Assembly (NCBI GenBank): GCA_050261575.1
Contig: JBLNDL010000043.1
Location: 12,115 to 76,114, forward strand
DNA from: Sphingomonadaceae bacterium
Lineage (GTDB): Bacteria > Chloroflexota > UBA6077
Direction of reading: 5' to 3'
DNA length: 64,000 nt
A program made the position numbers and the translations under genes. The notes below the pieces were generated by a model, which was given only the letters and a program-made list of their open reading frames with translations, ran no database searches and was not told the origin of the DNA. Shown here piece by piece: positions 42,243-56,992 of the stretch. The stretch's first letter is position 1. Each line of letters begins with the position of its first letter.

Positions 42243-43427
42243 TCACTTCGCCCCAACCTGAGCGGGCGTCCGGGTGGGCTCGGTCGGCTCCTCGGCCCCC
42301 TTGAAGCCCTCCTCCATGAACTCCGTCTCGGCCTCCTGCAGCGCCTCGCCCATGGCGGTGTGCACCGCCTCCTCGGGGATGGTCCTGGAGAGGAAGCTCT
42401 TCACTATACCCATCGATCGGTCAGTCTTTTCTATCGACTTCATCGCGTCACGCTCGATCCCGGCCATGGCCCGTATTGCGTCCACCGTCTCCGGGATCGT
42501 TATCGCCTCGTTGTGCACCTGGAAGGTGAGGTAGAGTTCCTGGCCGTCGGAGGCGAGGGCATCCTCCCACACCGCCACCTCCCACATGTCGTTGCGTGGA
42601 CGCTTCAGATCCCGCATCAGCTCGATCACCGAGTTGAGGGCCACAAGGCCGTCGGTAGCCCGAACGAAGGCGACGCGGGGCTCCTCCCATAGGGCATGGC
42701 GCAGCTCGTCCACACTCACGGGATGGGTCGTCTCCACCATAGCGAAGTGCATGTGACTCAGGTTGTATGGACCCGCTCCGGCCATGGTCGTGATGTTCAG
42801 CCCCTCGATGACGCTCTGGGCATCGGGCCCCTGGTGGCTTGGCACCTTCGTCTCCGGGATGGCGGTGTTGATCATCCCATTCTTGTGGGACTCCCACGGG
42901 TCGGTCCCGCGCCGCAGCAGCACCGCCCTCGCCCGCTTGATCCAGCCGCGCCGGTTGAGTGCGTTCATGATGCGGCAGAGCGCCGTAGTGTTGCAGGAGA
43001 CCACGCGGACGAACTGCCGGTCGATGGCGCCCACGTAGTTGACCTGGGCCGTGAAGGAGTAACCCGCCAGTTCGTGCTTCTCTCCCCCCTGGAAGATGGC
43101 CTTCACCCCCGCCTGCTCGTAGGCAGCCTTGTTCCTGGCCCCGATCCCCTTGGGGGTGCAGTCCACCACGAGGTCAACCTTCTTCAGCAGTTCGTGCAGT
43201 GGCCCGGTTACCGGGATGCGGGCTTGCTCCATCTCGGCTCGCTTCTCGGGGACCGAGGCGTAGATGGGATAGCCCGACTGCGCGGCCACTCGGATGCGAT
43301 AGTCGTAGGTAACGTCCGATATCCCCACCAACTCCATGTCGTCCTGGAGGACCACGGCGTCGGCGACACGCTTGCCGATGACGCCGTAGCCGTTGACCGC
43401 CACTCGAACCTTTCTGTTCTTAGCCAT
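42243..43427 (-). CDS. Glyceraldehyde-3-phosphate dehydrogenase, type II (archaeal-type), with about 50-aa acidic C-terminal extension
   Basis: MAKNRKVRVAVNGYGVIGKRVADAV, IFQGGEK, VRVVSCNTT (catalytic Cys), PSHQGPD and IPETVDAIRAM closely track archaeal GAPDH blocks. Confidence 0.85.
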   Translation of the reverse strand: MAKNRKVRVAVNGYGVIGKRVADAVVLQDDMELVGISDVTYDYRIRVAAQSGYPIYASVPEKRAEMEQARIPVTGPLHELLKKVDLVVDCTPKGIGARNKAAYEQAGVKAIFQGGEKHELAGYSFTAQVNYVGAIDRQFVRVVSCNTTALCRIMNALNRRGWIKRARAVLLRRGTDPWESHKNGMINTAIPETKVPSHQGPDAQSVIEGLNITTMAGAGPYNLSHMHFAMVETTHPVSVDELRHALWEEPRVAFVRATDGLVALNSVIELMRDLKRPRNDMWEVAVWEDALASDGQELYLTFQVHNEAITIPETVDAIRAMAGIERDAMKSIEKTDRSMGIVKSFLSRTIPEEAVHTAMGEALQEAETEFMEEGFKGAEEPTEPTRTPAQVGAK

Positions 43428-43709
43428 CCGCGGTGTTCCCTCGTCCTTCGATTGTCGTACACAGCGATGGGGGCCGGGCCACTGGAATTGGCCACCCGTC
43501 AGCCGCCCCAGTGATGGCACGTGTCGTACCGTAGAAGAGGTCCATGGCTGCCTCTCGCGCATCTCTCGCCACCTTTTCAGCCCCACCTAAGCGGAGGTTA
43601 AGCTCCCTCCTGTATTGTTAGCGCGGCGAGGGGGCAAGCTCATCCACACCTGGCAGAGCACGGCGCTTGCCGGTTTTCGGCGTCTCACCCGGGATCTCAG
43701 CGTCCCGCG

Positions 43710-44482: not shown

Positions 44483-44718
44483 CGCGAACGTGGGCGCTGG
44501 CTGTGGCGTTCGCGGCCACAGCCGCGGCGCTCGGCGGCTACACCCCCGTGGCCATCTACGGCGGTGCCGCGTGGGTCTTCCTGCTCTCGATGATCATCAC
44601 CATGCACACGGTGACGCCCTGGCTGAAGAAGCGGTCTTTGGGTCCCATAAAGAGAAGTTGGAGGTTGAAGCGATGGAGTTTCTTGGGGCGAATGCCGGAT
44701 GGATCGTGTTCGGGCTAA
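44479..44718 (+). CDS. Small two-TM membrane protein (hypothetical), TTG start overlapping the upstream stop
   Basis: Very high GC3 over the first roughly 50 codons; hydrophobic (LAVAFAATAAALGGYTPVAIYGGAAWVFLLSMIITM); the 3' end overlaps the next ORF. Confidence 0.3.
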   Translation: MTRTWALAVAFAATAAALGGYTPVAIYGGAAWVFLLSMIITMHTVTPWLKKRSLGPIKRSWRLKRWSFLGRMPDGSCSG

Positions 44719-44909
44719 TGTTGGTGCTGATGATGCGGATGCACCGCGGTGGCGCAGGCTGCTGCGGAGGCCACCAGCACGGAGGCAACCGGCCGGAGCA
44801 GCAGCCGGACCGGGAAAAGGAATCTCTACCCCCGCCTCGAGAGGCCAGGAGCGAGAAGGAGGAGGCTGTGGCCACCGGCAACCACCCTCACTCGGGTGGC
44901 TGCCACTAG
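44673..44909 (+). CDS. Small His/Cys-rich membrane protein (DUF2933-like?)
   Basis: GGAGG-N8-ATG; one TM helix, then MHRGGAGCCGGHQHGG...GNHPHSGGCH. Confidence 0.4.
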   Translation: MEFLGANAGWIVFGLMLVLMMRMHRGGAGCCGGHQHGGNRPEQQPDREKESLPPPREARSEKEEAVATGNHPHSGGCH

Positions 44910-44948
44910 CGTGTAGTTGCCGAGGCGGGGCAGGGCGCCTGCCCCGCC

Positions 44949-45194
44949 TCAGCCTCCCTTCTGCACCACGATCTCCCAGTCCGTGTCGTTCAGCTGAGCG
45001 ACCCTATGGACCCGATGGCCCTCGGCCTGAAGGCTGCGCGGCACGTTGGTCGTGGCGGGCAGGTGGTCCACCACCACCCTGAGGATCTGTCCCGTCTCCA
45101 TCTCCTCCAGAGCCAGCTTCGACCAGACGAAGGTGTAGGGGCACACCTCGCCTCGCAGGTCGATCTCTCGGTCTGTCCTGGTGATCTCTTGCAT
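44949..45194 (-). CDS. TusA-like sulfurtransferase (SirA/YedF/YeeD family)
   Basis: IDLRGEVCPYTFVWSKLALEEMETGQILRVVVD (CPxP active-site motif). Confidence 0.75.
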   Translation of the reverse strand: MQEITRTDREIDLRGEVCPYTFVWSKLALEEMETGQILRVVVDHLPATTNVPRSLQAEGHRVHRVAQLNDTDWEIVVQKGG

Positions 45195-45207
45195 GGCGAT
45201 GCCTTTC

Positions 45208-46302
45208 TCAGTGCGACGTTGTTGCGGGCTCGCGGAGGCCGCAGAACCACTCGTAGTCGATCAGCTCGCGGATGGTGGGCTCGTCACCGCAGATCGGGCA
45301 GCGGGGATCGCGGCCGATCCTAACCTCTCTGAACTCCATGGAGAGGGCGTCGAACAGCAGGAGCCGGTTCACCAGCGGCTCCCCGATCCCCAGGATCCAC
45401 TTGATCGCCTCCACCGCCTGAATCGAGCCGACGATGCCGGGCAGCACCCCGAGGACGCCGGCCTCGGCGCAACTGGGGACGGTGCCAGGCGGTGGAGGGG
45501 AGGCGAACAGGCAGCGGTAGCACCCCCTGCCCGGCGCGAAGAGGGTGGCCTGCCCCTCGAATCGGAAGATGCTGCCGTGGACCAGCGGCTTTCCCAGCAG
45601 GACGCAGGCGTCGTTGATCAGGTATCGGGTGGCGAAGTTGTCGGTGCCGTCCAGCACGACGTCGTAGCCGGAGAAGATCTCCAGGGCGTTCTCCGCGGAG
45701 AGCCTATCCGCATGTTTGATCACCCGGACGTCCGGGTTCACCTCGGCGATGGTCTCCTGGGCCGAGTCCACCTTCAGCCGCCCGAGGTCGCTCTGGCCGT
45801 GGAGGATCTGCCTCTGGAGGTTGCTCAGGTCCACCCGATCGAAGTCGATGATGCCCAGGGTGCCCACCCCCGCCGCGGCCAGGTAGAGGGCAGCGGGGGA
45901 GCCGAGCCCGCCTGCGCCCACCAGCAGCACCCTCGAGCCGAGCAGCTTCCGCTGCCCCTCGCCCCCCACCTCCGTCAGCAGGATGTGGCGGCTGTAGCGC
46001 ATCACCTGCTCTCGGGTGAAGGGGAGGGCACCACCCGCCATTGCCGGGATGATGGAAAGCTCGTCCCCCTCTCGCAGGACGGCCTGCTTCCCCCCCAGAT
46101 CCTCGACCGGGTCCCGGTTGATGTAGAGGTTCACGTGATGCAGGATCTCGCCCGAGGGGTCCAGCACGCGATCCTTGATGCCGGGGAAGCGACCCTCCAA
46201 CTGCTCCAGGACGGCCTGGACGGTGCCGGCCTCCACCTCGACCTTCGCCTGCCCTCCCGTCAGGTGGCGGAAGGGAGTGGGTATGTACACTCTTGCGGAC
46301 AC
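45208..46302 (-). CDS. Fusion of a MoaD/ThiS/CysO-type ubiquitin-like sulfur-carrier domain (ending in internal Gly-Gly) to a MoeB/ThiF/MoeZ-type E1-like adenylyltransferase
   Basis: Residues 1-96 (...ILHHVNLYINRDPVEDLGGKQAVLREGDELSIIPAMAGG) have the beta-grasp sulfur-carrier pattern and terminate in GG. They run directly into ALPFTREQVMRYSRHILL...GAGGLGSPAALYLAAAGVG (the ThiF/MoeB nucleotide-binding motif) and a C-terminal CxxC...CxxC zinc site (CYRC...CPIC). There is no rhodanese domain. Confidence 0.8.
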   Translation of the reverse strand: MSARVYIPTPFRHLTGGQAKVEVEAGTVQAVLEQLEGRFPGIKDRVLDPSGEILHHVNLYINRDPVEDLGGKQAVLREGDELSIIPAMAGGALPFTREQVMRYSRHILLTEVGGEGQRKLLGSRVLLVGAGGLGSPAALYLAAAGVGTLGIIDFDRVDLSNLQRQILHGQSDLGRLKVDSAQETIAEVNPDVRVIKHADRLSAENALEIFSGYDVVLDGTDNFATRYLINDACVLLGKPLVHGSIFRFEGQATLFAPGRGCYRCLFASPPPPGTVPSCAEAGVLGVLPGIVGSIQAVEAIKWILGIGEPLVNRLLLFDALSMEFREVRIGRDPRCPICGDEPTIRELIDYEWFCGLREPATTSH

Positions 46303-46353
46303 GGGTTACTCCTCCAATGGGGTTCTCGGTTCTGGGTGCTGGGGGCGCCGCTC

Positions 46354-47271
46354 CTATAGGTCGGGAATGCTGAGGTAGCGCTCCCCGGTGTCGGGCAGGA
46401 GGGTCACCACCCGCTTACCCGCCCCCAGCTCCTGCGCCACCGACAGCGCCGCGAAGACGTTGGCACCCCCGGAGATGCCTGCCAGCAGCCCCTCCTCGCG
46501 GCTCAGGCGCGAGGCCGTCCGGATGGCGTCCTCGTCCCGCACCGGCACTATCCTGTCCAGGATCTCGCGGTCGAGGATGGTCGGCACGAAGCTGGCGCCT
46601 ATCCCCTGGATGGCGTGGGGGCGCGCCCTCTCCCCCTTCAGCACCTGGGAGCGGGCGGGCTCCACGGCCACGACCAGGACCGAGGGGTTCGCCTCCTTGA
46701 GCAGCTCGCCGACCCCGGTGATGCTCCCGCCGGTGCCCACGCCCGCGACGAAGGCGTCCAGCCGGCCCCCGGCAGCCTCCAGGATCTCCAGCGCTGTGGT
46801 CCGCCGGTGCACCTCAGGGTTGGCGGGGTTGTTGAACTGGTCGGGCATGAAGTAGTCAGGGTTGCGCTCCAGCAGTTGCTGCGCGGCGAAGACGGCCCCG
46901 GACATCCCCTCGATGGCCGGGGTAAGGATCAACTCCGCCCCGAACCTGGCGAGCAGTCGCTGCCTCTCGACGCTCATGTCCTCGGGCATCGTGAGGATCA
47001 GCCTGTAGCCCTTCACGGCGGCGACCATCGCCAGGCCGATGCCGGTGTTGCCGCTGGTCGGCTCCACGATGGTGGCCCCCGGCAGGAGCCTCCCGGATCG
47101 CTCCGCCGCCTCCACCATGGCGAGCGCCACGCGGTCCTTGACGCTTCCCCCCGGGTTCCGCGCCTCCACCTTCACCAGCAGCTCGGCGGAGCCCGGTCCG
47201 GGGAGCCGCCTCAACCGCACGAGGGGGGTGTCTCCGATCAGATCCAGGACGCTATCGGCGATGCCGGCCAC
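46354..47271 (-). CDS. cysM: Cysteine synthase (CysK/CysM family PLP enzyme)
   Basis: PLP-Lys motif GGSVKDR, TSGNTGIGLA and GTGGS loops. Confidence 0.85.
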   Translation of the reverse strand: MAGIADSVLDLIGDTPLVRLRRLPGPGSAELLVKVEARNPGGSVKDRVALAMVEAAERSGRLLPGATIVEPTSGNTGIGLAMVAAVKGYRLILTMPEDMSVERQRLLARFGAELILTPAIEGMSGAVFAAQQLLERNPDYFMPDQFNNPANPEVHRRTTALEILEAAGGRLDAFVAGVGTGGSITGVGELLKEANPSVLVVAVEPARSQVLKGERARPHAIQGIGASFVPTILDREILDRIVPVRDEDAIRTASRLSREEGLLAGISGGANVFAALSVAQELGAGKRVVTLLPDTGERYLSIPDL

Positions 47272-47415
47272 GGGGAGTCCCTCCAGGGGAAAAGTCTATG
47301 ATGTCGCGCGGGTAAGTCAACAATGCGAGGGGATTCTATCGGGGCGCCTGTTGGGGGCGCAACCCCCTTTTCCTTAGAGTTCGCTGAGAGCCGCCCCGCC
47401 AGCGCCCCAGAGCGC

Positions 47416-47443
47416 TTGACAAGGCGCCGCCAGCGTGAATAAT
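47416..47443 (+). promoter_or_regulatory. Strong sigma-70-like promoter candidate (TTGACA-N16-AATAAT) for the dsrEFH-yeeE-yeeD transcription unit
   Basis: Perfect -35 TTGACA at 47416-47421, then 16 nt, then AATAAT at 47438-47443; about 70 nt upstream of the GTG at 47516. Confidence 0.45.
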
Positions 47444-47515: not shown

Positions 47516-47812
47516 GTGACGCTCGCCATCCTTCTCACAAGCGGCTTCGAATCCGCCGACAAACACACCGCGCTGAGGCTGGCCGAGGCTGCTCTCGCCC
47601 AGGGACATCACGTGAAGCTCTTCCTGATGGGCGACGGCGTCTACAGTGCGTCCATCTTCGGCAACCTCGCCCAAAAGGGGGCTTCCGTCGTGTGGTGCTC
47701 GCACAACGCCCAGCAGCGCGGGCTGCTGCCGGTACAAGGTGTCTCCGCGGGAAGCCAGTTCGAGTGGGCGGAAATGGTGGCCCAGGCGGACAGGGTGGTG
47801 AGCTTTGGATAA
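47516..47812 (+). CDS. DsrE/TusD-like sulfur-relay protein
   Basis: GTG start with GGAGGT; a roughly 98-aa DsrE/DsrF-fold protein with Cys in WCSHNAQQRG. Confidence 0.65.
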   Translation: MTLAILLTSGFESADKHTALRLAEAALAQGHHVKLFLMGDGVYSASIFGNLAQKGASVVWCSHNAQQRGLLPVQGVSAGSQFEWAEMVAQADRVVSFG

Positions 47813-48170
47813 GTTGAGGCAGGGCAAGAATGTCGTCGTGCTGATCCGGCGATCCCCCCTCGGCAGCCTCAAAGCTTCCGAGGGGCTGCGGATGGCCGTG
47901 GGGCAGAGCATGGCCCACCGGGTCACGGTGCTGCTGGTGGACACCGCGGTGTGGCTGGCCGGGCCACTGAAGCCGGAACTGGTGGAGGGGGGAGGGGTCG
48001 GCAAGCACCTGGGCATGCTGACACGTCTGAAGCAGCGGGTGTGGGTGGAGGCATCGTCGATGGAACGGTATGGACTGGAGCCGAGCCTTCTCCGGGAGGG
48101 CGTCTCGATCGTGAGCGGGCAAGAGATCGACGAGGCGCTGCTCGCAGCCGACGCCGTCGTTGTGTACTGA
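47805..48170 (+). CDS. DsrF/TusC-like sulfur-relay protein
   Basis: NVVVLIRRSPLGSLKASEGLRMAV parallels the TusC N-terminus (KIAFVFRSAPYGSASGREALDA); the start (TTG 47805 or 47814) is uncertain. Confidence 0.6.
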   Translation: MDKLRQGKNVVVLIRRSPLGSLKASEGLRMAVGQSMAHRVTVLLVDTAVWLAGPLKPELVEGGGVGKHLGMLTRLKQRVWVEASSMERYGLEPSLLREGVSIVSGQEIDEALLAADAVVVY

Positions 48171-48179
48171 GGTGACGAG

Positions 48180-48437
48180 ATGAGGGCGCTCCACATACTG
48201 CGGTCTATGGAGGACGAGCGCGCGTTGGCGACTGCGCTCTCGCACGCCGCCGATCACCCCACCAGCCTGCTGCTGCTCCAGGATGCGGTGCTGGCCAGGG
48301 TGGACGGTTTCCCGGGCCCCGTCTACGCCTCTGCCGAGGACGTCGCAGCCAGGGGAAAGGGCGGCACCTTTCGGGAGGTCGACTACGAGGCCATCGTGAA
48401 CCTCATCTTCGAGCACGATCGAGTGATCACTTGGTGA
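48180..48437 (+). CDS. DsrH/TusB-like sulfur-relay protein
   Basis: An 85-aa protein with RBS GAGGTG-N5-ATG; a small DsrH-fold pattern (LHILRS...LLLLQDAV). Confidence 0.6.
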   Translation: MRALHILRSMEDERALATALSHAADHPTSLLLLQDAVLARVDGFPGPVYASAEDVAARGKGGTFREVDYEAIVNLIFEHDRVITW

Positions 48438-48476
48438 CGGAGGGGCGATACCCGGCCACGTCCCTCCAGACCATCG

Positions 48477-48501
48477 AGTCGGGGTTGTCCCAACCCCGAC
48501 T
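48477..48501 (+). terminator. 11-bp stem-loop 40 nt after dsrH (terminator or attenuator candidate)
   Basis: agtcggggttg-tcc-caaccccgact; no U-tract. Confidence 0.3.
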
Positions 48502-48550
48502 GGTCGCGCAGTCGACCGCCGCCGTTGGGGCGCAACGCGAGCGAGCACGC

Positions 48551-48584
48551 GAGGCAAGCGAGCACAGCCTCACGGTTGCGGCCG
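48551..48584. repeat. Short dispersed intergenic repeat, copy 2 (gaggcaagcgagcacagcctcacggttgcggccg), with a partial tandem duplication (gcgagcgagcac) immediately upstream
   Basis: See copy 1 at 39923-39956. Confidence 0.35.
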
Positions 48585-48635
48585 ACTCCGCGATGACACA
48601 AACAGACCAACCCAGCAGCAGATGGGAGGTGGCAT

Positions 48636-49922
48636 TTGGCGACGACGACGTTGGCGGATTTCAGCTTACAAACCCCTGCTTTCACTGACCGTTTGCGGTC
48701 GGTGCGAGACAGGGTCTTCGTGGAGTACTGGCCCTACTGGGCAGCGGCAATGGTTCTCGCGGTGCTGAACATCTTCGAGTTCGGTTTCGGTGGCCGTGCC
48801 TGGGGGGTCACCACCGAGTTCACCCGGTGGGGTGGGCACCTGATGCAACTGCTGGGGGTGGACGTCGGCAACTGGCTCTACTTCAAGCAGATCGGACTAG
48901 AGGGTATGCCGTGGGACCGTGGATCCGGATGGATCAACATCGGCATGCTCCTCGGCGCGCTGATCGGGGCGCTTCTCAGCACCAACTTCAAGATCCGGAT
49001 GCCGAGGCGGCGGATCCGCCTGGTGCAGGGGTTCGTGGGGGGTGCCATCGCCGGATTCGGCGCCAGGCTCGCCATGGGATGCAACCTCGGCTCCTTCTTC
49101 AGCGCCATCCCGCAGTTCTCTTTCCACGGCTGGCTCTTCATGGCTGGTCTGTTCCTGGGCACCTACCTGGGGACCAAGATCGTCCTCCTGCCGGTCTTCC
49201 TGGGCAAGCCCGAGCGACATCGAGGTAGAGCGGGCGAGCCGACGCCCGACCCCACCGGGAGGAGCATCCAGCCGATCCTGGGCCTCGTTCTGCTGGGGCT
49301 GGTGGGATCGGGAGTCGCCTACTACGTGCTGTTCGGCAAATGGACGCTCGGGGTTTGGCTGCTGTTCGGGGTCGGGTTCGGCTTCGCCATCGAGCGGGGG
49401 CGGTTCTGCTTCACCTCGGCCTTCCGCGAGCTGTGGATCACCCGCCAGGCGGACCTGTCCAGGGCCCTCGCCCTGGGCATGATGGTCGCCACCATCGGCA
49501 TGGCTATCCTGATCTACGCAGGCAAGGTGCCCGAGGCGCAGTGGGCGAGCCCTGGCGCACTGCTGGGCGGGATAATCTTCGGTACAGGCATCGTCGTGGC
49601 CGGCGGGTGCGAGACCGGGTGGATGTACCGCTCCGCCGAGGGGTACGTGCAGCTCTGGATGGCTGGCCTCGGCACCATCGTGGGGGCCACGCTGCTGGCT
49701 TGGGCGTGGGGATCCGCAGGGCTGTACCACTACCTGGTCGAGGGCTGGCCCAAGATCGCCCTCTTCAAGTGGATCGGCTGGCCGGCCGCGATCCTGGCGA
49801 CCCTGGCCCTGTTGGCGGGCTGGTATCTCTTCGTGACCTGGTGGGAGTCGCGTGGATCCCTCTCCGTTCCCCGGGCTGCTGCCAGGGGCATCGCATCAGA
49901 CAAGGAGAAGGCAACGGCATGA
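48636..49922 (+). CDS. YeeE/YedE family thiosulfate (sulfur-compound) transporter
   Basis: Two homologous halves, each with a conserved Cys in a GxC motif (LAMGCNLGS / VAGGCETG). TTG start after GGGAGGTGG; the start is uncertain. Confidence 0.8.
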   Translation: MATTTLADFSLQTPAFTDRLRSVRDRVFVEYWPYWAAAMVLAVLNIFEFGFGGRAWGVTTEFTRWGGHLMQLLGVDVGNWLYFKQIGLEGMPWDRGSGWINIGMLLGALIGALLSTNFKIRMPRRRIRLVQGFVGGAIAGFGARLAMGCNLGSFFSAIPQFSFHGWLFMAGLFLGTYLGTKIVLLPVFLGKPERHRGRAGEPTPDPTGRSIQPILGLVLLGLVGSGVAYYVLFGKWTLGVWLLFGVGFGFAIERGRFCFTSAFRELWITRQADLSRALALGMMVATIGMAILIYAGKVPEAQWASPGALLGGIIFGTGIVVAGGCETGWMYRSAEGYVQLWMAGLGTIVGATLLAWAWGSAGLYHYLVEGWPKIALFKWIGWPAAILATLALLAGWYLFVTWWESRGSLSVPRAAARGIASDKEKATA

Positions 49923-50167
49923 GCGAGACCGAGAGGATCGTCGTCGATAGGGTCCTAGACCTGCGGGGGGAAACCTGCCCCTACCCGCCCATCTACACTG
50001 TACAGGAGTTGGCCGACATGAATCCTGGGGAGGTGCTGGAGGTAATAGTGGACCACCCGCCGTCGGTCACCAACGTCCCCAAGGAGGTGGCCCGGCATGG
50101 CCACGCGGTGCTTGGGGAGCCCGTACGGCAGGGCGCGGTGTACCGGATGCGCTTCCAGGTGCGGTAG
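49919..50167 (+). CDS. TusA-like protein (YeeD-type partner of YeeE)
   Basis: ATG overlaps the yeeE stop (ATGA); LDLRGETCPYPPIYTVQELADMNPGEVLEVIVDHP. The ORF track lists 49920, but counting in the printed sequence places the ATG at 49919-49921. Confidence 0.75.
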   Translation: MSETERIVVDRVLDLRGETCPYPPIYTVQELADMNPGEVLEVIVDHPPSVTNVPKEVARHGHAVLGEPVRQGAVYRMRFQVR

Positions 50168-50232: not shown

Positions 50233-50964
50233 ATGACGCCCCCAGGTAAGGGTGAACGGATGGGTATGATGAACGCAAAGATCCTGGTGATCGACGACGA
50301 CGCCAACGTCACCAGCCTCCTGAAGAGGGGCCTCTCCTACGAGGGCTACAGGGTGCTCACCGCCGCCTCCGGGAAGGAGGGGTTGGACCTGGCTCGAGAG
50401 CAGCCTCCCGACCTGGTGGTGCTGGACGTGATGATGCCCGGCATAGACGGCCTGGAGGTGTGCCGCCGGCTGCGCGCGGCGGACGCGGCTCGTCCCATCA
50501 TCCTGCTGACGGCGAGGGATGGCACAGCCGACCAGGTGCAGGGGCTGGAGACGGGGGCCGACGACTACGTGGTCAAGCCCTTCACCTTCGAGGTGCTGCT
50601 GGCCCGCATCAAGGCGTGCCTTCGTCGATCCGAGGCGAGCGGGGCAGAGCAGCTTCGTTTCGCCGACCTGGTGCTGGACACCGGAACCCACACCGCCCGG
50701 CGGGGCCGCAGAGAGATCGACCTGACCACCACCGAATACGAGCTGCTGCTCCAGTTCATGCGGCACCCGCGCCAGTTGCTCGCGAAGGACCAGTTGATGG
50801 ACAGGGTGTGGGGTTACAGCTTCGAGGGGAACTACAACATCCTCGAGGTGTACGTCCGCTACCTCCGCAGCAAGCTGGAGGCCGAGGGGGAGCCTCGGCT
50901 GATCCACACGGTGCGGGGGGCAGGGTACCTCCTGAGAGAGCCGCGGGAGGGCGAGGAGGAGTAG
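50233..50964 (+). CDS. OmpR-family response regulator
   Basis: REC (KILVIDDD...LVVLDVMMPGIDG) plus a winged-helix trans_reg_C domain (LTTTEYELLLQFMRHP...RYLRSKLE). The start is probably ATG 50260-50269. Confidence 0.85.
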   Translation: MTPPGKGERMGMMNAKILVIDDDANVTSLLKRGLSYEGYRVLTAASGKEGLDLAREQPPDLVVLDVMMPGIDGLEVCRRLRAADAARPIILLTARDGTADQVQGLETGADDYVVKPFTFEVLLARIKACLRRSEASGAEQLRFADLVLDTGTHTARRGRREIDLTTTEYELLLQFMRHPRQLLAKDQLMDRVWGYSFEGNYNILEVYVRYLRSKLEAEGEPRLIHTVRGAGYLLREPREGEEE

Positions 50965-50967
50965 AGA

Positions 50968-52449
50968 GTGTACTCGTCCCTCCGGCTGAGGCTTGCGGTG
51001 TGGTACGCGACACTGCTGGCCCTCATCCTGGCGACCACCGCCTTCCTCTCCTACAGCTTCCACAGCAGCTACCATTACCAGGAGGTCGATCGCTCTCTGG
51101 TCGGCACAGCGGTTCACGTCCGCGGCGAGCTGCCGGTAGGGGATGGCCGGTATCGACTCCAAGATGGGATCGATCTCTCGCGAGTGGACGAGTTCGCCTC
51201 CCCAGACGTCTACGTGCGCCTCTACGACGCTGACGGCGGGTTGATCGCGGCCTCCCCCAACTCTGGGCATCAACCACAGGCGGATCCCCGACTGGTATCC
51301 GAAGCGCCTCCAGATCGCGCGGGCGGTGGCCCACTTGGGTCGCTGCTTCATCTCTTGATCAACCTTGGACAGGCGGACCTGCCGGAGGATGGTGGATTCC
51401 TGACCGTGGTGCAGGAAGGGCGGGGCAGGACCAGGCTGTACGCGGTTCCCATCAGGGCCGGCGACCGGCTGCTGGGGTACCTGGAGGCAGGGTCGTCCAT
51501 GGATCGGCTCGACCGCTCCATAGAGAGGCTCGGCCTGCTACTCGCTTCAAGCTCCGCCCTGGGACTCCTGGCAGCGCTGCTGGGGGGGTGGGCCATCGCA
51601 GCCGGCGCGCTGCGCCCGGTGGCAACGATGGCCAGCACGGCTCGGGCCATCGCGCTCTCCAGGGGCTTCTCTCGCAGGCTGCCCCATCCCCGCAGAGACG
51701 ACGAGCTGGGCCAGTTGTCCGTAACCTTCAACGAGATGCTGGCGAGCCTCGACGAAGCCTATCGGGCGCAGCAGCGTTTCGTCGCCGACGCATCGCACGA
51801 GCTGCGGGCGCCCCTCACAGCGATCCAGGGCAACCTGGAGCTGCTGGAGCGGGCGCCTCAGATGAGCGAGGTGGAGAGGGCCGAGACCCTGTCCTCCCTT
51901 CGCCGGGAAGCCGGACGGATGGGCCGTCTGGTGGCCGACCTGCTGGTGCTGGCGCGCGCCGACGCCGGCCAGCCCTTGAGGCGGGAGCGGGTGGAGCTGG
52001 ATCGGCTGCTCCTGGCGGTGTTCCAGGAGACGCGGGTGCTGGCCGGAGGGCGGAAGCTGTCGATACGCGACCTGGATCAGTTGCTCGTGCTGGGGGATCC
52101 GGACCGGTTGAAGCAGTTGCTGCTGATCCTGGTGGATAACGCCATCAAGTACACGCCCGAGGGGGGCGAGATCCAGCTTGCCCTCCGAAGGGAGCCCGGC
52201 GCGGCAGTCGTCTCCGTGTCCGACACCGGGATCGGCATCTCAACCGAGGACCTCCCTCACATCTTCGAGCGCTTCTACCGAGCGGACAAGGCTCGGTCCA
52301 GGGATCTGGGCGGCACCGGTCTGGGGCTGTCCATCGCCAGGTGGATAGCCGAAAGCCACGGAGGCCACATCTCCGTGGAAAGCGAGGCCGGCCGGGGCAG
52401 CGTCTTCACCGTCCGGCTGCCCCGAGCGCACTCCTCTCAGGGGCTCTAA
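50968..52449 (+). CDS. Sensor histidine kinase (two TM helices, periplasmic domain, HAMP, HisKA, HATPase_c)
   Basis: GTG start 4 nt after the regulator stop; H-box ADASHELRAPLTAI, and N/G boxes. Confidence 0.85.
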   Translation: MYSSLRLRLAVWYATLLALILATTAFLSYSFHSSYHYQEVDRSLVGTAVHVRGELPVGDGRYRLQDGIDLSRVDEFASPDVYVRLYDADGGLIAASPNSGHQPQADPRLVSEAPPDRAGGGPLGSLLHLLINLGQADLPEDGGFLTVVQEGRGRTRLYAVPIRAGDRLLGYLEAGSSMDRLDRSIERLGLLLASSSALGLLAALLGGWAIAAGALRPVATMASTARAIALSRGFSRRLPHPRRDDELGQLSVTFNEMLASLDEAYRAQQRFVADASHELRAPLTAIQGNLELLERAPQMSEVERAETLSSLRREAGRMGRLVADLLVLARADAGQPLRRERVELDRLLLAVFQETRVLAGGRKLSIRDLDQLLVLGDPDRLKQLLLILVDNAIKYTPEGGEIQLALRREPGAAVVSVSDTGIGISTEDLPHIFERFYRADKARSRDLGGTGLGLSIARWIAESHGGHISVESEAGRGSVFTVRLPRAHSSQGL

Positions 52450-56740: not shown

Positions 56741-56992
56741 TCAACTGCGCTCGGGCAGGCTCTTCGGCGTCTCCTGCTTGGAGTCGTGGCAGGAGGGCTG
56801 GTCCTGCTTCCCGCGGCCCAGCATCCCCTTCATCATGAAGATGTGAAGGAGAGGGCACAGCGCCACGAGGGCATAGGTGGCAAGGCTGCTCAGGGGGATA
56901 TTCAGGATCGTCACGGCGAAGACGGCCACCATGGGAATGAGGCAGCAGAGCAGCATGATCATCATGTGCCGGTTGCCGGAGTGTTGATGCAC
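56741..56992 (-). CDS. Small His-rich N-terminus / Cys-Cys membrane protein (DUF2933-like?)
   Basis: MHQHSGNRHMMIMLLCCLIPMVAVFAVTILNIP...; overlapping opposite-strand ORFs look non-coding. Low confidence. Confidence 0.35.
   Translation of the reverse strand: MHQHSGNRHMMIMLLCCLIPMVAVFAVTILNIPLSSLATYALVALCPLLHIFMMKGMLGRGKQDQPSCHDSKQETPKSLPERS

Follow-up and report, generated by a model that had tools for sequence, protein, structure and literature searches.

In Mycobacterium tuberculosis, cysteine is made by a protein-thiocarboxylate pathway that consists of the sulfur carrier CysO, the activating enzyme (E1) MoeZ(R), the cysteine synthase CysM, and Mec+, which hydrolyzes the carrier-cysteine adduct. 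A variant of this pathway and of the HcyS/HcyF/HcyD pathway is encoded in a 64-kb stretch of contig JBLNDL010000043.1 (the whole analyzed stretch is hereafter called the window). As in M. tuberculosis, a CysO-like carrier, a ThiF/MoeB-type E1, and a pyridoxal 5'-phosphate (PLP)-dependent cysteine synthase are encoded in one operon, and a JAMM hydrolase gene is found in related loci. The window differs in four respects: carrier and E1 form a single protein, a TusA gene accompanies an E1 that lacks rhodanese, the PLP enzyme is CysK-type and not the O-phosphoserine-specific CysM, and no JAMM gene is present nearby. On balance, we lean toward the view that the fusion is a precursor which is cut after Gly91 by a JAMM protease from outside the window, and that the freed carrier is thiocarboxylated for cysteine synthesis.

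Carriers with C-terminal extensions that are trimmed by JAMM proteases have reportedly been characterized by the Begley laboratory (Wolinella HcyS-Ala/HcyD/HcyF/MetY and Pseudomonas QbsE/QbsD/QbsC). The window resembles these systems in that residues after the Gly-Gly would have to be removed before adenylation, but the extension is 1-2 residues there and a whole 273-residue E1 here. Eukaryotic polyubiquitin and ubiquitin-ribosomal protein precursors, which are processed by deubiquitinases, likewise present a modifier that is made as a fusion and whose Gly-Gly is exposed by a dedicated protease; they differ in partner and pathway, with conjugation there and sulfur transfer here.

Operons for extended, trimmed carriers have been classified as types 4a-4e, of which type 4e also occurs with SirA/TusA, sulfite reductase, and sulfhydrylase (PMC1779556). 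A beta-grasp carrier joined via Gly-Gly to a partner enzyme has been studied in Haloferax volcanii, where a linear SAMP1-MoaE fusion is cleaved by HvJAMM1 precisely behind its Gly-Gly, the cut is required for activity, and deletion of the Gly-Gly blocks cleavage (PMC4443979). The partner in that case is MoaE, an acceptor enzyme and not an E1, and the fusion tested was engineered, natural fusions of ubiquitin-like (Ubl) domains with MoaE being only catalogued (PMC4443979).

Fusions with an E1 have been recorded in comparative genomics. Iyer et al. 2006 described Ubl-ThiF fusions as well as operons of ThiS/MoaD, JAB, E1, cysteine synthase, SirA, and sulfite reductase genes (PMC1779556), and Makarova and Koonin 2010 described a 'Ubl-E1-TBP' fusion common to Thaumarchaeota and bacteria (PMC2948915). 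In both the Campylobacter-type Ubl-ThiF and the Ubl-E1-TBP proteins the Ubl is N-terminal to the E1, the same domain order as in the window. The Campylobacter-type Ubl is, however, distinct from ThiS and always accompanied by a free ThiS in thiamine operons (PMC1779556), whereas the present Ubl is CysO-like, has kept its Gly-Gly, and is usually the sole carrier beside a cysteine synthase and a JAMM gene. No experimental study of a ThiS/MoaD-E1 fusion, including the Campylobacter type and Ubl-E1-TBP, was found in the literature searched. An earlier reading of the window, made from the letters alone (the sequence-only reading), had drawn attention to the fusion; the architecture is not unusual, being widespread across many phyla, and had already been noted in the two papers above.

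A CysO-like carrier joined to a MoeB-type E1

Three minus-strand open reading frames (ORFs) were confirmed in the order that the sequence-only reading had given, PLP enzyme, fusion, and TusA. The first gene of the operon encodes a 305-residue CysK-type O-acetylserine sulfhydrylase (46354-47271; PALP domain, E=3e-75), the second the 364-residue carrier-E1 fusion (45208-46302; GTG start with GGAGGAG 5' of it), and the third an 81-residue TusA-family sulfurtransferase with its Cys in a CPYT motif (44949-45194; Pfam TusA, 70 bits). The genes lie head to tail with gaps of 51 nt and then 13 nt, and each is preceded by a Shine-Dalgarno-like sequence. The GC content at third codon positions (GC3) is 0.85-0.93 in all three genes in a sequence of 67% GC, as fits real genes.

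The fusion protein was matched by Pfam to ThiS at residues 5-91 (E=2e-12) and to ThiF at residues 103-336 (E=2e-85). The carrier domain (residues 1-91; 46030-46302, minus), which ends in PAMAGG, aligns along the entire length of M. tuberculosis CysO (3DWG_C, 93 residues; E=1.3e-15) and ends where CysO has its own C-terminal Gly-Gly. An AlphaFold2 model of the full-length protein (mean predicted local distance difference test score, pLDDT, of 87) had confident domains and a low-confidence junction (pLDDT 55-79), and a fold search with it returned E1 matches only; the N-terminal domain was therefore modeled separately. That model was a beta-grasp fold (pLDDT 92), and its top Foldseek matches were the CysO proteins of M. 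tuberculosis (3DWG_C, template modeling (TM) score 0.88, 41% identity in the structural alignment) and Amycolatopsis (4N6E_B, TM 0.90), followed by SAMP1, MoaD, and Urm1. The concern that this domain might turn out not to be a beta-grasp carrier was thereby removed. The E1 part superposed on ThiF and MoeB with TM scores of 0.91-0.93.

The junction reads ...IIPAMAGG|ALPFTREQVMRYSRH. Residues 97-339 of the fusion align with residues 6-248 of E. coli MoeB, so that residue 92 corresponds to MoeB residue 1, and the junction residues 92-101 (ALPFTREQVM; 46000-46029, minus) align with the native MoeB N-terminus. As judged from these alignments, carrier and E1 are both complete and directly abut each other, without an inserted linker. 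The Gly-Gly, the predicted site of both cleavage and adenylation, is internal (residues 90-91 of 364; 46030-46035, minus), and no free C-terminal Gly-Gly exists unless the protein is cleaved. In an alignment of 83 homologues of the fusion protein, G90 and G91 were invariant (83/83), and the Gly-Gly was also present in all 40 fused loci of the genome survey described below. The preceding P86, A87, and A89 were nearly invariant; after the Gly-Gly both length and sequence varied, with linkers of 9-45 residues among relatives.

The E1 adenylation domain (residues 102-340; 45283-45999, minus) is supported by Pfam ThiF, Foldseek, and its invariant residues. These include the GAGGLGS nucleotide loop, R102 (the Arg finger), D221 (the catalytic Asp), and C278, whose counterpart in ThiF is the Cys of the NCRTAGV motif, together with a zinc site of two CxxC pairs (C261/C264 and C335/C338). 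The E1 scored 310 bits against the MoeB subfamily model NF004281 (cutoff 266), and the fusion fell below the cutoff of the MoeZ model (388 bits vs 647). No rhodanese domain was found by Pfam in the fusion protein, and only 24 residues follow the second CxxC. The sequence-only reading's picture of a CysO-like carrier fused to a MoeB-type E1 with a C-terminal zinc site and no rhodanese thus stands, on Pfam, the CysO alignment, and the invariant CxxC pairs.

Two further features of the E1 part were recorded. The C-terminal tail (residues 341-364; 45211-45282, minus) carries the motif IDYExFCG after the zinc site, with D349, Y350, and C354 kept in all 83 homologues; a conserved Cys in the flexible tail of a rhodanese-less E1 could serve as a sulfur acceptor. 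The best NCBIfam match of the window protein was the PRK08762-type Rhd-MoeB protein, in which the rhodanese is N-terminal. Close E1 relatives of this Rhd-MoeB type (L058:10248-11525, L078:10268-11530, L065, and L067) have the rhodanese where the window fusion has the carrier.

That the fusion is an assembly or sequencing artefact, from a lost stop codon or a frameshift between two genes, could be argued from relatives that have carrier and E1 genes in one frame with a single stop codon between them. That explanation has a negligible chance of being correct. An identical 364-residue protein is encoded in three other assemblies, both domains were present in 120/120 homologue clusters among the matches listed (named sources: Chloroflexota, Dehalococcoidia, NC10/Methylomirabilis, and Moorellaceae), and fused genes made up half of the surveyed genome loci (40/80) in many phyla. 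The reading frame across the fusion is continuous, and GC3 is 0.90 over the entire ORF, as for a real coding frame. The frameshift that the sequence-only reading had named as grounds for abandoning its proposal was rejected on the identical proteins and the conserved fusion. An internal translation start for the E1 was also considered and rejected, M101 not being conserved.

Fused and split loci and their JAMM genes

The comparison of fused and split relatives that the sequence-only reading had called for was made by scanning one genome per species, which gave 80 loci. Carrier and E1 were fused in 40 of them, from Chloroflexota, Gemmatimonadota, Acidobacteriota, Bacteroidota, Verrucomicrobiota, Elusimicrobia, Eisenbacteria, a Moorellaceae bacterium, and Thermoplasmata archaea; the fusion is not rare and spans many phyla. 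A JAMM gene (motif HSHxxxxxxxSxxD) was found within 5 kb of the fused gene in 38/40 fused loci, and Pfam Prok-JAB was confirmed for all of the JAMM genes tested (6/6). By comparison, E1 genes without an adjacent carrier had a JAMM gene nearby in 0/16 cases. Another carrier gene lay nearby in only two of the 40 fused loci, so in the remaining clusters, most of which include a PLP cysteine synthase, no candidate carrier other than the fused domain is present.

The free carriers of split relatives extend 0-24 residues beyond the Gly-Gly and seldom end at it (GGC, GGV, GGCDR, GGAGNKRAR, and others). Because of this, trimming would appear to be a normal step in this carrier family, and the fusion its extreme case. 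Fused and split states were scattered over a neighbor-joining tree of E1 domains, and at least 17 changes of state were needed to explain them. In 14/22 split pairs the carrier and E1 genes lay in the same frame with in-frame stops between them (10 by a single stop), compared with a chance expectation of one third (binomial p=0.0035). Since a point mutation interconverts the two states, they look functionally equivalent.

Same-frame split pairs include L010, L021, L022, L027, L030, L035, L036, L040, L054, and L078 (position ~10280 in most). Programmed readthrough of the in-frame stop was considered for these pairs and rejected: all three stop codons are represented, more than one stop separates some pairs, and every E1 has a separate ATG downstream. 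From these features the split relatives are best read as ordinary separate genes, with the pattern reflecting the gain and loss of stop codons.

The association of JAMM genes with fused loci gives strong comparative support to JAMM release of the carrier. For the internal Gly-Gly, the sequence-only reading had offered proteolytic release and chemistry on the uncut site as alternatives. JAMM release is strongly backed by the relatives, through the 38 JAMM-linked fused loci and the interchange of fused and split states, and by the HvJAMM1 precedent; chemistry on an internal Gly-Gly has no support. Adenylation requires a free carboxylate.

In most fused proteins of the survey the E1 is followed by a long C-terminal extension, which was a Pfam rhodanese in both proteins tested (L009 and L015). 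Such ThiS-ThiF-rhodanese triple fusions of ~480-520 residues (L005-L009, L011, L013-L020, L023, and others; e.g., L009:9980-11515) are common in Acidobacteriota, Gemmatimonadota, Bacteroidota, and Thermoplasmata. They have linkers of 12-45 residues after the Gly-Gly, and CysM-like and Prok-JAB genes lie immediately upstream of them.

Relatives at ~68% identity to the window protein have a larger cluster (L083:6983-13354 and L085:8597-14987). Its order is Rrf2, a CysK-type enzyme, the fusion, a free ThiS ending in GGQ, a CysM-type enzyme, JAB, an MnmA-like tRNA thiolase, and a PP-loop protein, and fused and free carriers can therefore coexist. A few kb upstream is another set made up of genes for a PLP enzyme, a NIL-domain protein, and ThiS, after which L085 also has ThiF. 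Several carrier-based sulfur pathways seem to operate in parallel in these organisms.

The closest relatives, at 76-100% identity, form a clade of the window with L081, L082, L087, L088, and L090-L093, in which the order PLP enzyme, fusion, TusA is constant (the L081 protein is 94% identical to that of the window). As the sequence-only reading had stated, no JAMM gene is present in the 64-kb window: the motif search gave one spurious ORF, and a search with a profile of JAMM genes from related loci (56 genes) had as its best match a 48-residue ORF at E=0.019. No peptidase domain was found in the ~30 neighboring genes in the ~20 kb around the operon. A search of the window for a free carrier, CysM, sulfite reductase, or an Rrf2 regulator found none, and neither a free carrier nor CysM was found in the clade contigs. 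The carrier part is under purifying selection within the clade (ratio of nonsynonymous to synonymous substitution rates, dN/dS, 0.18-0.27; 0.14-0.24 in JAMM-linked relatives), and its junction sequence looks like that of the JAMM-linked relatives. The absence of JAMM from the window and from every clade contig is real. It leaves the protease gene of this clade either elsewhere in the genome, which is the simplest reading, or absent.

Proposed pathway and competing explanations

We infer the following series of steps. A JAMM/MPN metalloprotease encoded outside the window would cut the 364-residue precursor after Gly91, giving a 91-residue CysO-like carrier that ends in ...PAMAGG and a MoeB-type E1 that would begin at the position where E. 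coli MoeB itself begins. The freed E1 would adenylate Gly91 of the carrier, and persulfide sulfur would turn the adenylate into a carrier thiocarboxylate. This sulfur would come from the co-transcribed TusA, perhaps via the invariant Cys278, with import and relay probably carried out by a divergent YedE-TusA-DsrEFH-like operon. The thiocarboxylate would most likely give its sulfur to the adjacent CysK-type enzyme, forming cysteine, and the carrier-cysteine adduct would be hydrolyzed by the same JAMM protease, as by Mec+ in mycobacteria.

The role given to TusA is suggested by its distribution in the 80-locus survey. TusA was found within 5 kb of 4/12 rhodanese-less E1 genes vs 0/66 rhodanese-bearing ones (rhodanese at either end; p ~3.5e-4, hand calculation), and it lies directly 3' of the fusion in every clade contig reaching that far (L081, L082, L087, L088, and L090-L093). 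Because TusA and rhodanese occur in this complementary fashion, TusA may supply the persulfide in place of a MoeZ-type rhodanese.

The divergent operon consists of five genes that start from the same intergenic region as the cysK operon, in a layout also seen in L081. Three small DsrE/DsrF/DsrH-like genes (98, 121, and 85 residues; 47516-48437, plus; Pfam DsrE, DsrE, and DsrH, with weak TusD/TusC/TusB matches) are followed by a YedE/YeeE-family sulfur transporter (428 residues; 48636-49922, plus; Sulf_transp E=1e-54, NF033796 421 bits vs cutoff 350) and a second TusA/YeeD-like protein (82 residues, CPYP motif; 49919-50167, plus; Pfam TusA, 70 bits), which overlaps the end of yedE by 4 nt. Cys61 is present in the DsrE-like protein. 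The trio is a probable sulfane-sulfur relay, and from its gene content the operon as a whole plausibly imports and relays sulfur for the cysK-fusion-tusA operon. In L001 the fusion gene is followed by YeeE-TusA-TusA-JAMM. The gene content of the divergent operon also recalls YeeE-YeeD thiosulfate uptake (PMC11073785). The YTD cluster (yedE-tusA-dsrEFH) has recently been reinterpreted as YedE-TusA-DsrEFH type II (PMC13293266), and the present genes resemble it by gene content (three DsrE/DsrH-like genes, yedE, and tusA) and Cys61 only; the described clusters occur with reductive DsrAB and DsrC as acceptor, whereas that in the window faces the cysteine synthase/carrier-E1/TusA operon. YTD/DsrEFH type II has been described for sulfate reducers and cable bacteria, and the cluster seen here (47516-50167, plus) is in a Chloroflexota-like sequence.

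The upstream PLP enzyme, which the sequence-only reading had labeled CysM, was reassigned. It scored 430 bits against the TIGR01139 cysK model (cutoff 351) and fell below the cutoffs of both CysM models. Its closest PDB matches were the CysK enzymes 2EGU and M. tuberculosis CysK1 (2Q3B), and M. tuberculosis CysM (3DWG_A, 3DKI) was not among its best 60 PDB matches. By model scores and structural matches it is CysK-type and not of the mycobacterial CysM type. This weakens the direct analogy with mycobacterial CysM/CysO that had been put forward. An orthologue of this enzyme adjoins the fusion gene in L001-L004, L012, L081, L083, L085, L087, L089, and L090. The second PLP enzyme of L083 was closest to M. 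tuberculosis CysM (top PDB matches 3DWG_A and 3DKI), and the PLP enzyme of the acidobacterial cluster L009 was closest to E. coli CysM.

Several observations weigh against release by JAMM for cysteine synthesis. No JAMM gene was found in the 64-kb window or the eight shorter clade contigs, as opposed to 38/40 fused loci elsewhere. In the relatives at ~68% identity, a free carrier, a CysM-type enzyme, and JAMM all lie beside the fusion; JAMM there might act only for the free carrier/CysM pair, and the fused domain might do something else. The PLP enzyme, on the matches above, is CysK-type, and CysK-type enzymes normally use free sulfide. A sulfite-reductase-like gene directly upstream of cysK in L087 and L090 fits an ordinary free-sulfide route. 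Together with the CysK type, this neighbor leaves room for such a route, with the carrier serving some other purpose. The sulfite-reductase-like protein (~295 residues, NIR_SIR and 4Fe-4S ferredoxin domains; L087:723-1616 and L090:1009-1887) is absent from the window.

Three other explanations were weighed against the precursor model. The fused beta-grasp domain may never be released and may work in cis as a module for docking, regulation, or autoinhibition, with the E1 serving a free MoaD, ThiS, or CysO from another part of the genome. The lack of JAMM in the window and clade speaks for this, as does the free carrier gene directly after the fusion in L083-L086, L004, and L012, and Iyer et al. 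2006 held the same view for Campylobacter-type Ubl-ThiF fusions, which co-occur with free ThiS (PMC1779556). Yet 38 of the 40 fused loci lack a second carrier gene nearby and contain JAMM and usually a cysteine synthase, the Gly-Gly and its preceding motif are as conserved as in free carriers, fused and split states swap freely among close relatives, and the 64-kb window contains no free carrier gene; we regard permanent retention as unlikely. Somewhat less probable again is the explanation that carrier and E1 serve molybdopterin, tRNA 2-thiouridine, or thiamine synthesis, with CysK an ordinary free-sulfide synthase grouped with them only as sulfur metabolism. The CysK type of the PLP enzyme, the sulfite-reductase-like gene upstream of cysK, the MnmA-like and PP-loop genes after the cluster in L083 and L085, and the 'MoeB' label given to the E1 by the NCBI model are all consistent with such a role. 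They are countered by the closest solved relatives of the carrier, which are CysO and not MoaD or ThiS, by the PLP cysteine synthase that adjoins the fusion in most loci across many phyla, and by the window itself, in which no molybdenum cofactor, thiamine, or tRNA-thiolation gene lies near the operon.

The third explanation applies to the window's clade, where a different peptidase or self-cleavage at the Gly-Gly-Ala bond might release the carrier. It would account for an invariant Gly-Gly and a domain under purifying selection at loci that all lack JAMM. No peptidase gene is found in ~20 kb around the operon, however, the junction sequence looks like that of JAMM-linked relatives, and we know of no self-cleavage in E1 or ThiS proteins, which makes this route very improbable. 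A broader possibility, also distinctly doubtful but less so, is that the clade has lost JAMM and still needs the fused domain, which would then either remain unreleased (e.g., by tethering the E1 and TusA to the CysK-type enzyme in a fixed sulfur-channeling complex) or be freed by self-cleavage or a different protease that would be new for E1/Ubl systems. Having the fusion and no protease gene nearby, this clade is the case likeliest to give something unexpected.

If the precursor model is true, a sulfur carrier arises in many bacteria and some archaea as ubiquitin does in eukaryotes, from a fused precursor in which a dedicated JAMM protease has to uncover the Gly-Gly. The partner would be the carrier's own activating enzyme, tying carrier supply one-to-one to E1 supply, and the pathway would depend on the same protease that releases its product. 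For dozens of clusters the survey yields predictions of cleavage after the Gly-Gly, TusA in place of rhodanese, and a CysK-type acceptor. The automated labels 'MoeB' and 'SAMP1' hide this probable link to cysteine synthesis.

Expression signals and neighboring genes

A promoter-like site (TTGACT-16-TAGACT; 47293-47320, minus; a consensus match only) lies ~22 nt 5' of the cysK start, and a second (TTGACA-16-AATAAT; 47416-47443, plus), which matches 11/12 consensus positions, precedes the divergent operon. Two sigma-70-like sites were found in 3 kb near the operon, compared with 0.1 expected from shuffles. A GC-rich hairpin directly 3' of the tusA stop (44924-44948, minus) likely marks the end of the operon; it has a 16-bp stem, and the 45-nt stretch that contains it folds at -37.6 kcal/mol. 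The hairpin has no T-run and was for this reason missed by the terminator scan. No riboswitch or other known RNA element was found around the operon using Rfam (best E 0.7-0.9).

A gene for a small membrane protein of 78 residues, rich in Cys and His (MHRGGAGCCGGHQHGG...; 44673-44909, plus), converges on tusA and is kept in L091. The window also contains genes for a DUF2933 protein (56741-56992), an HMA-domain protein, a cupredoxin, and CcmE, as well as two pairs of response regulator and histidine kinase (one at 50233-52449). These genes suggest metal-related functions near the operon. A gene similar to that of glyceraldehyde-3-phosphate dehydrogenase (42243-43586, minus) gave Gp_dh_C and DapB_N matches that were stronger than bacterial Gp_dh_N, and its product has a long N-terminal extension when called from the first possible start codon.

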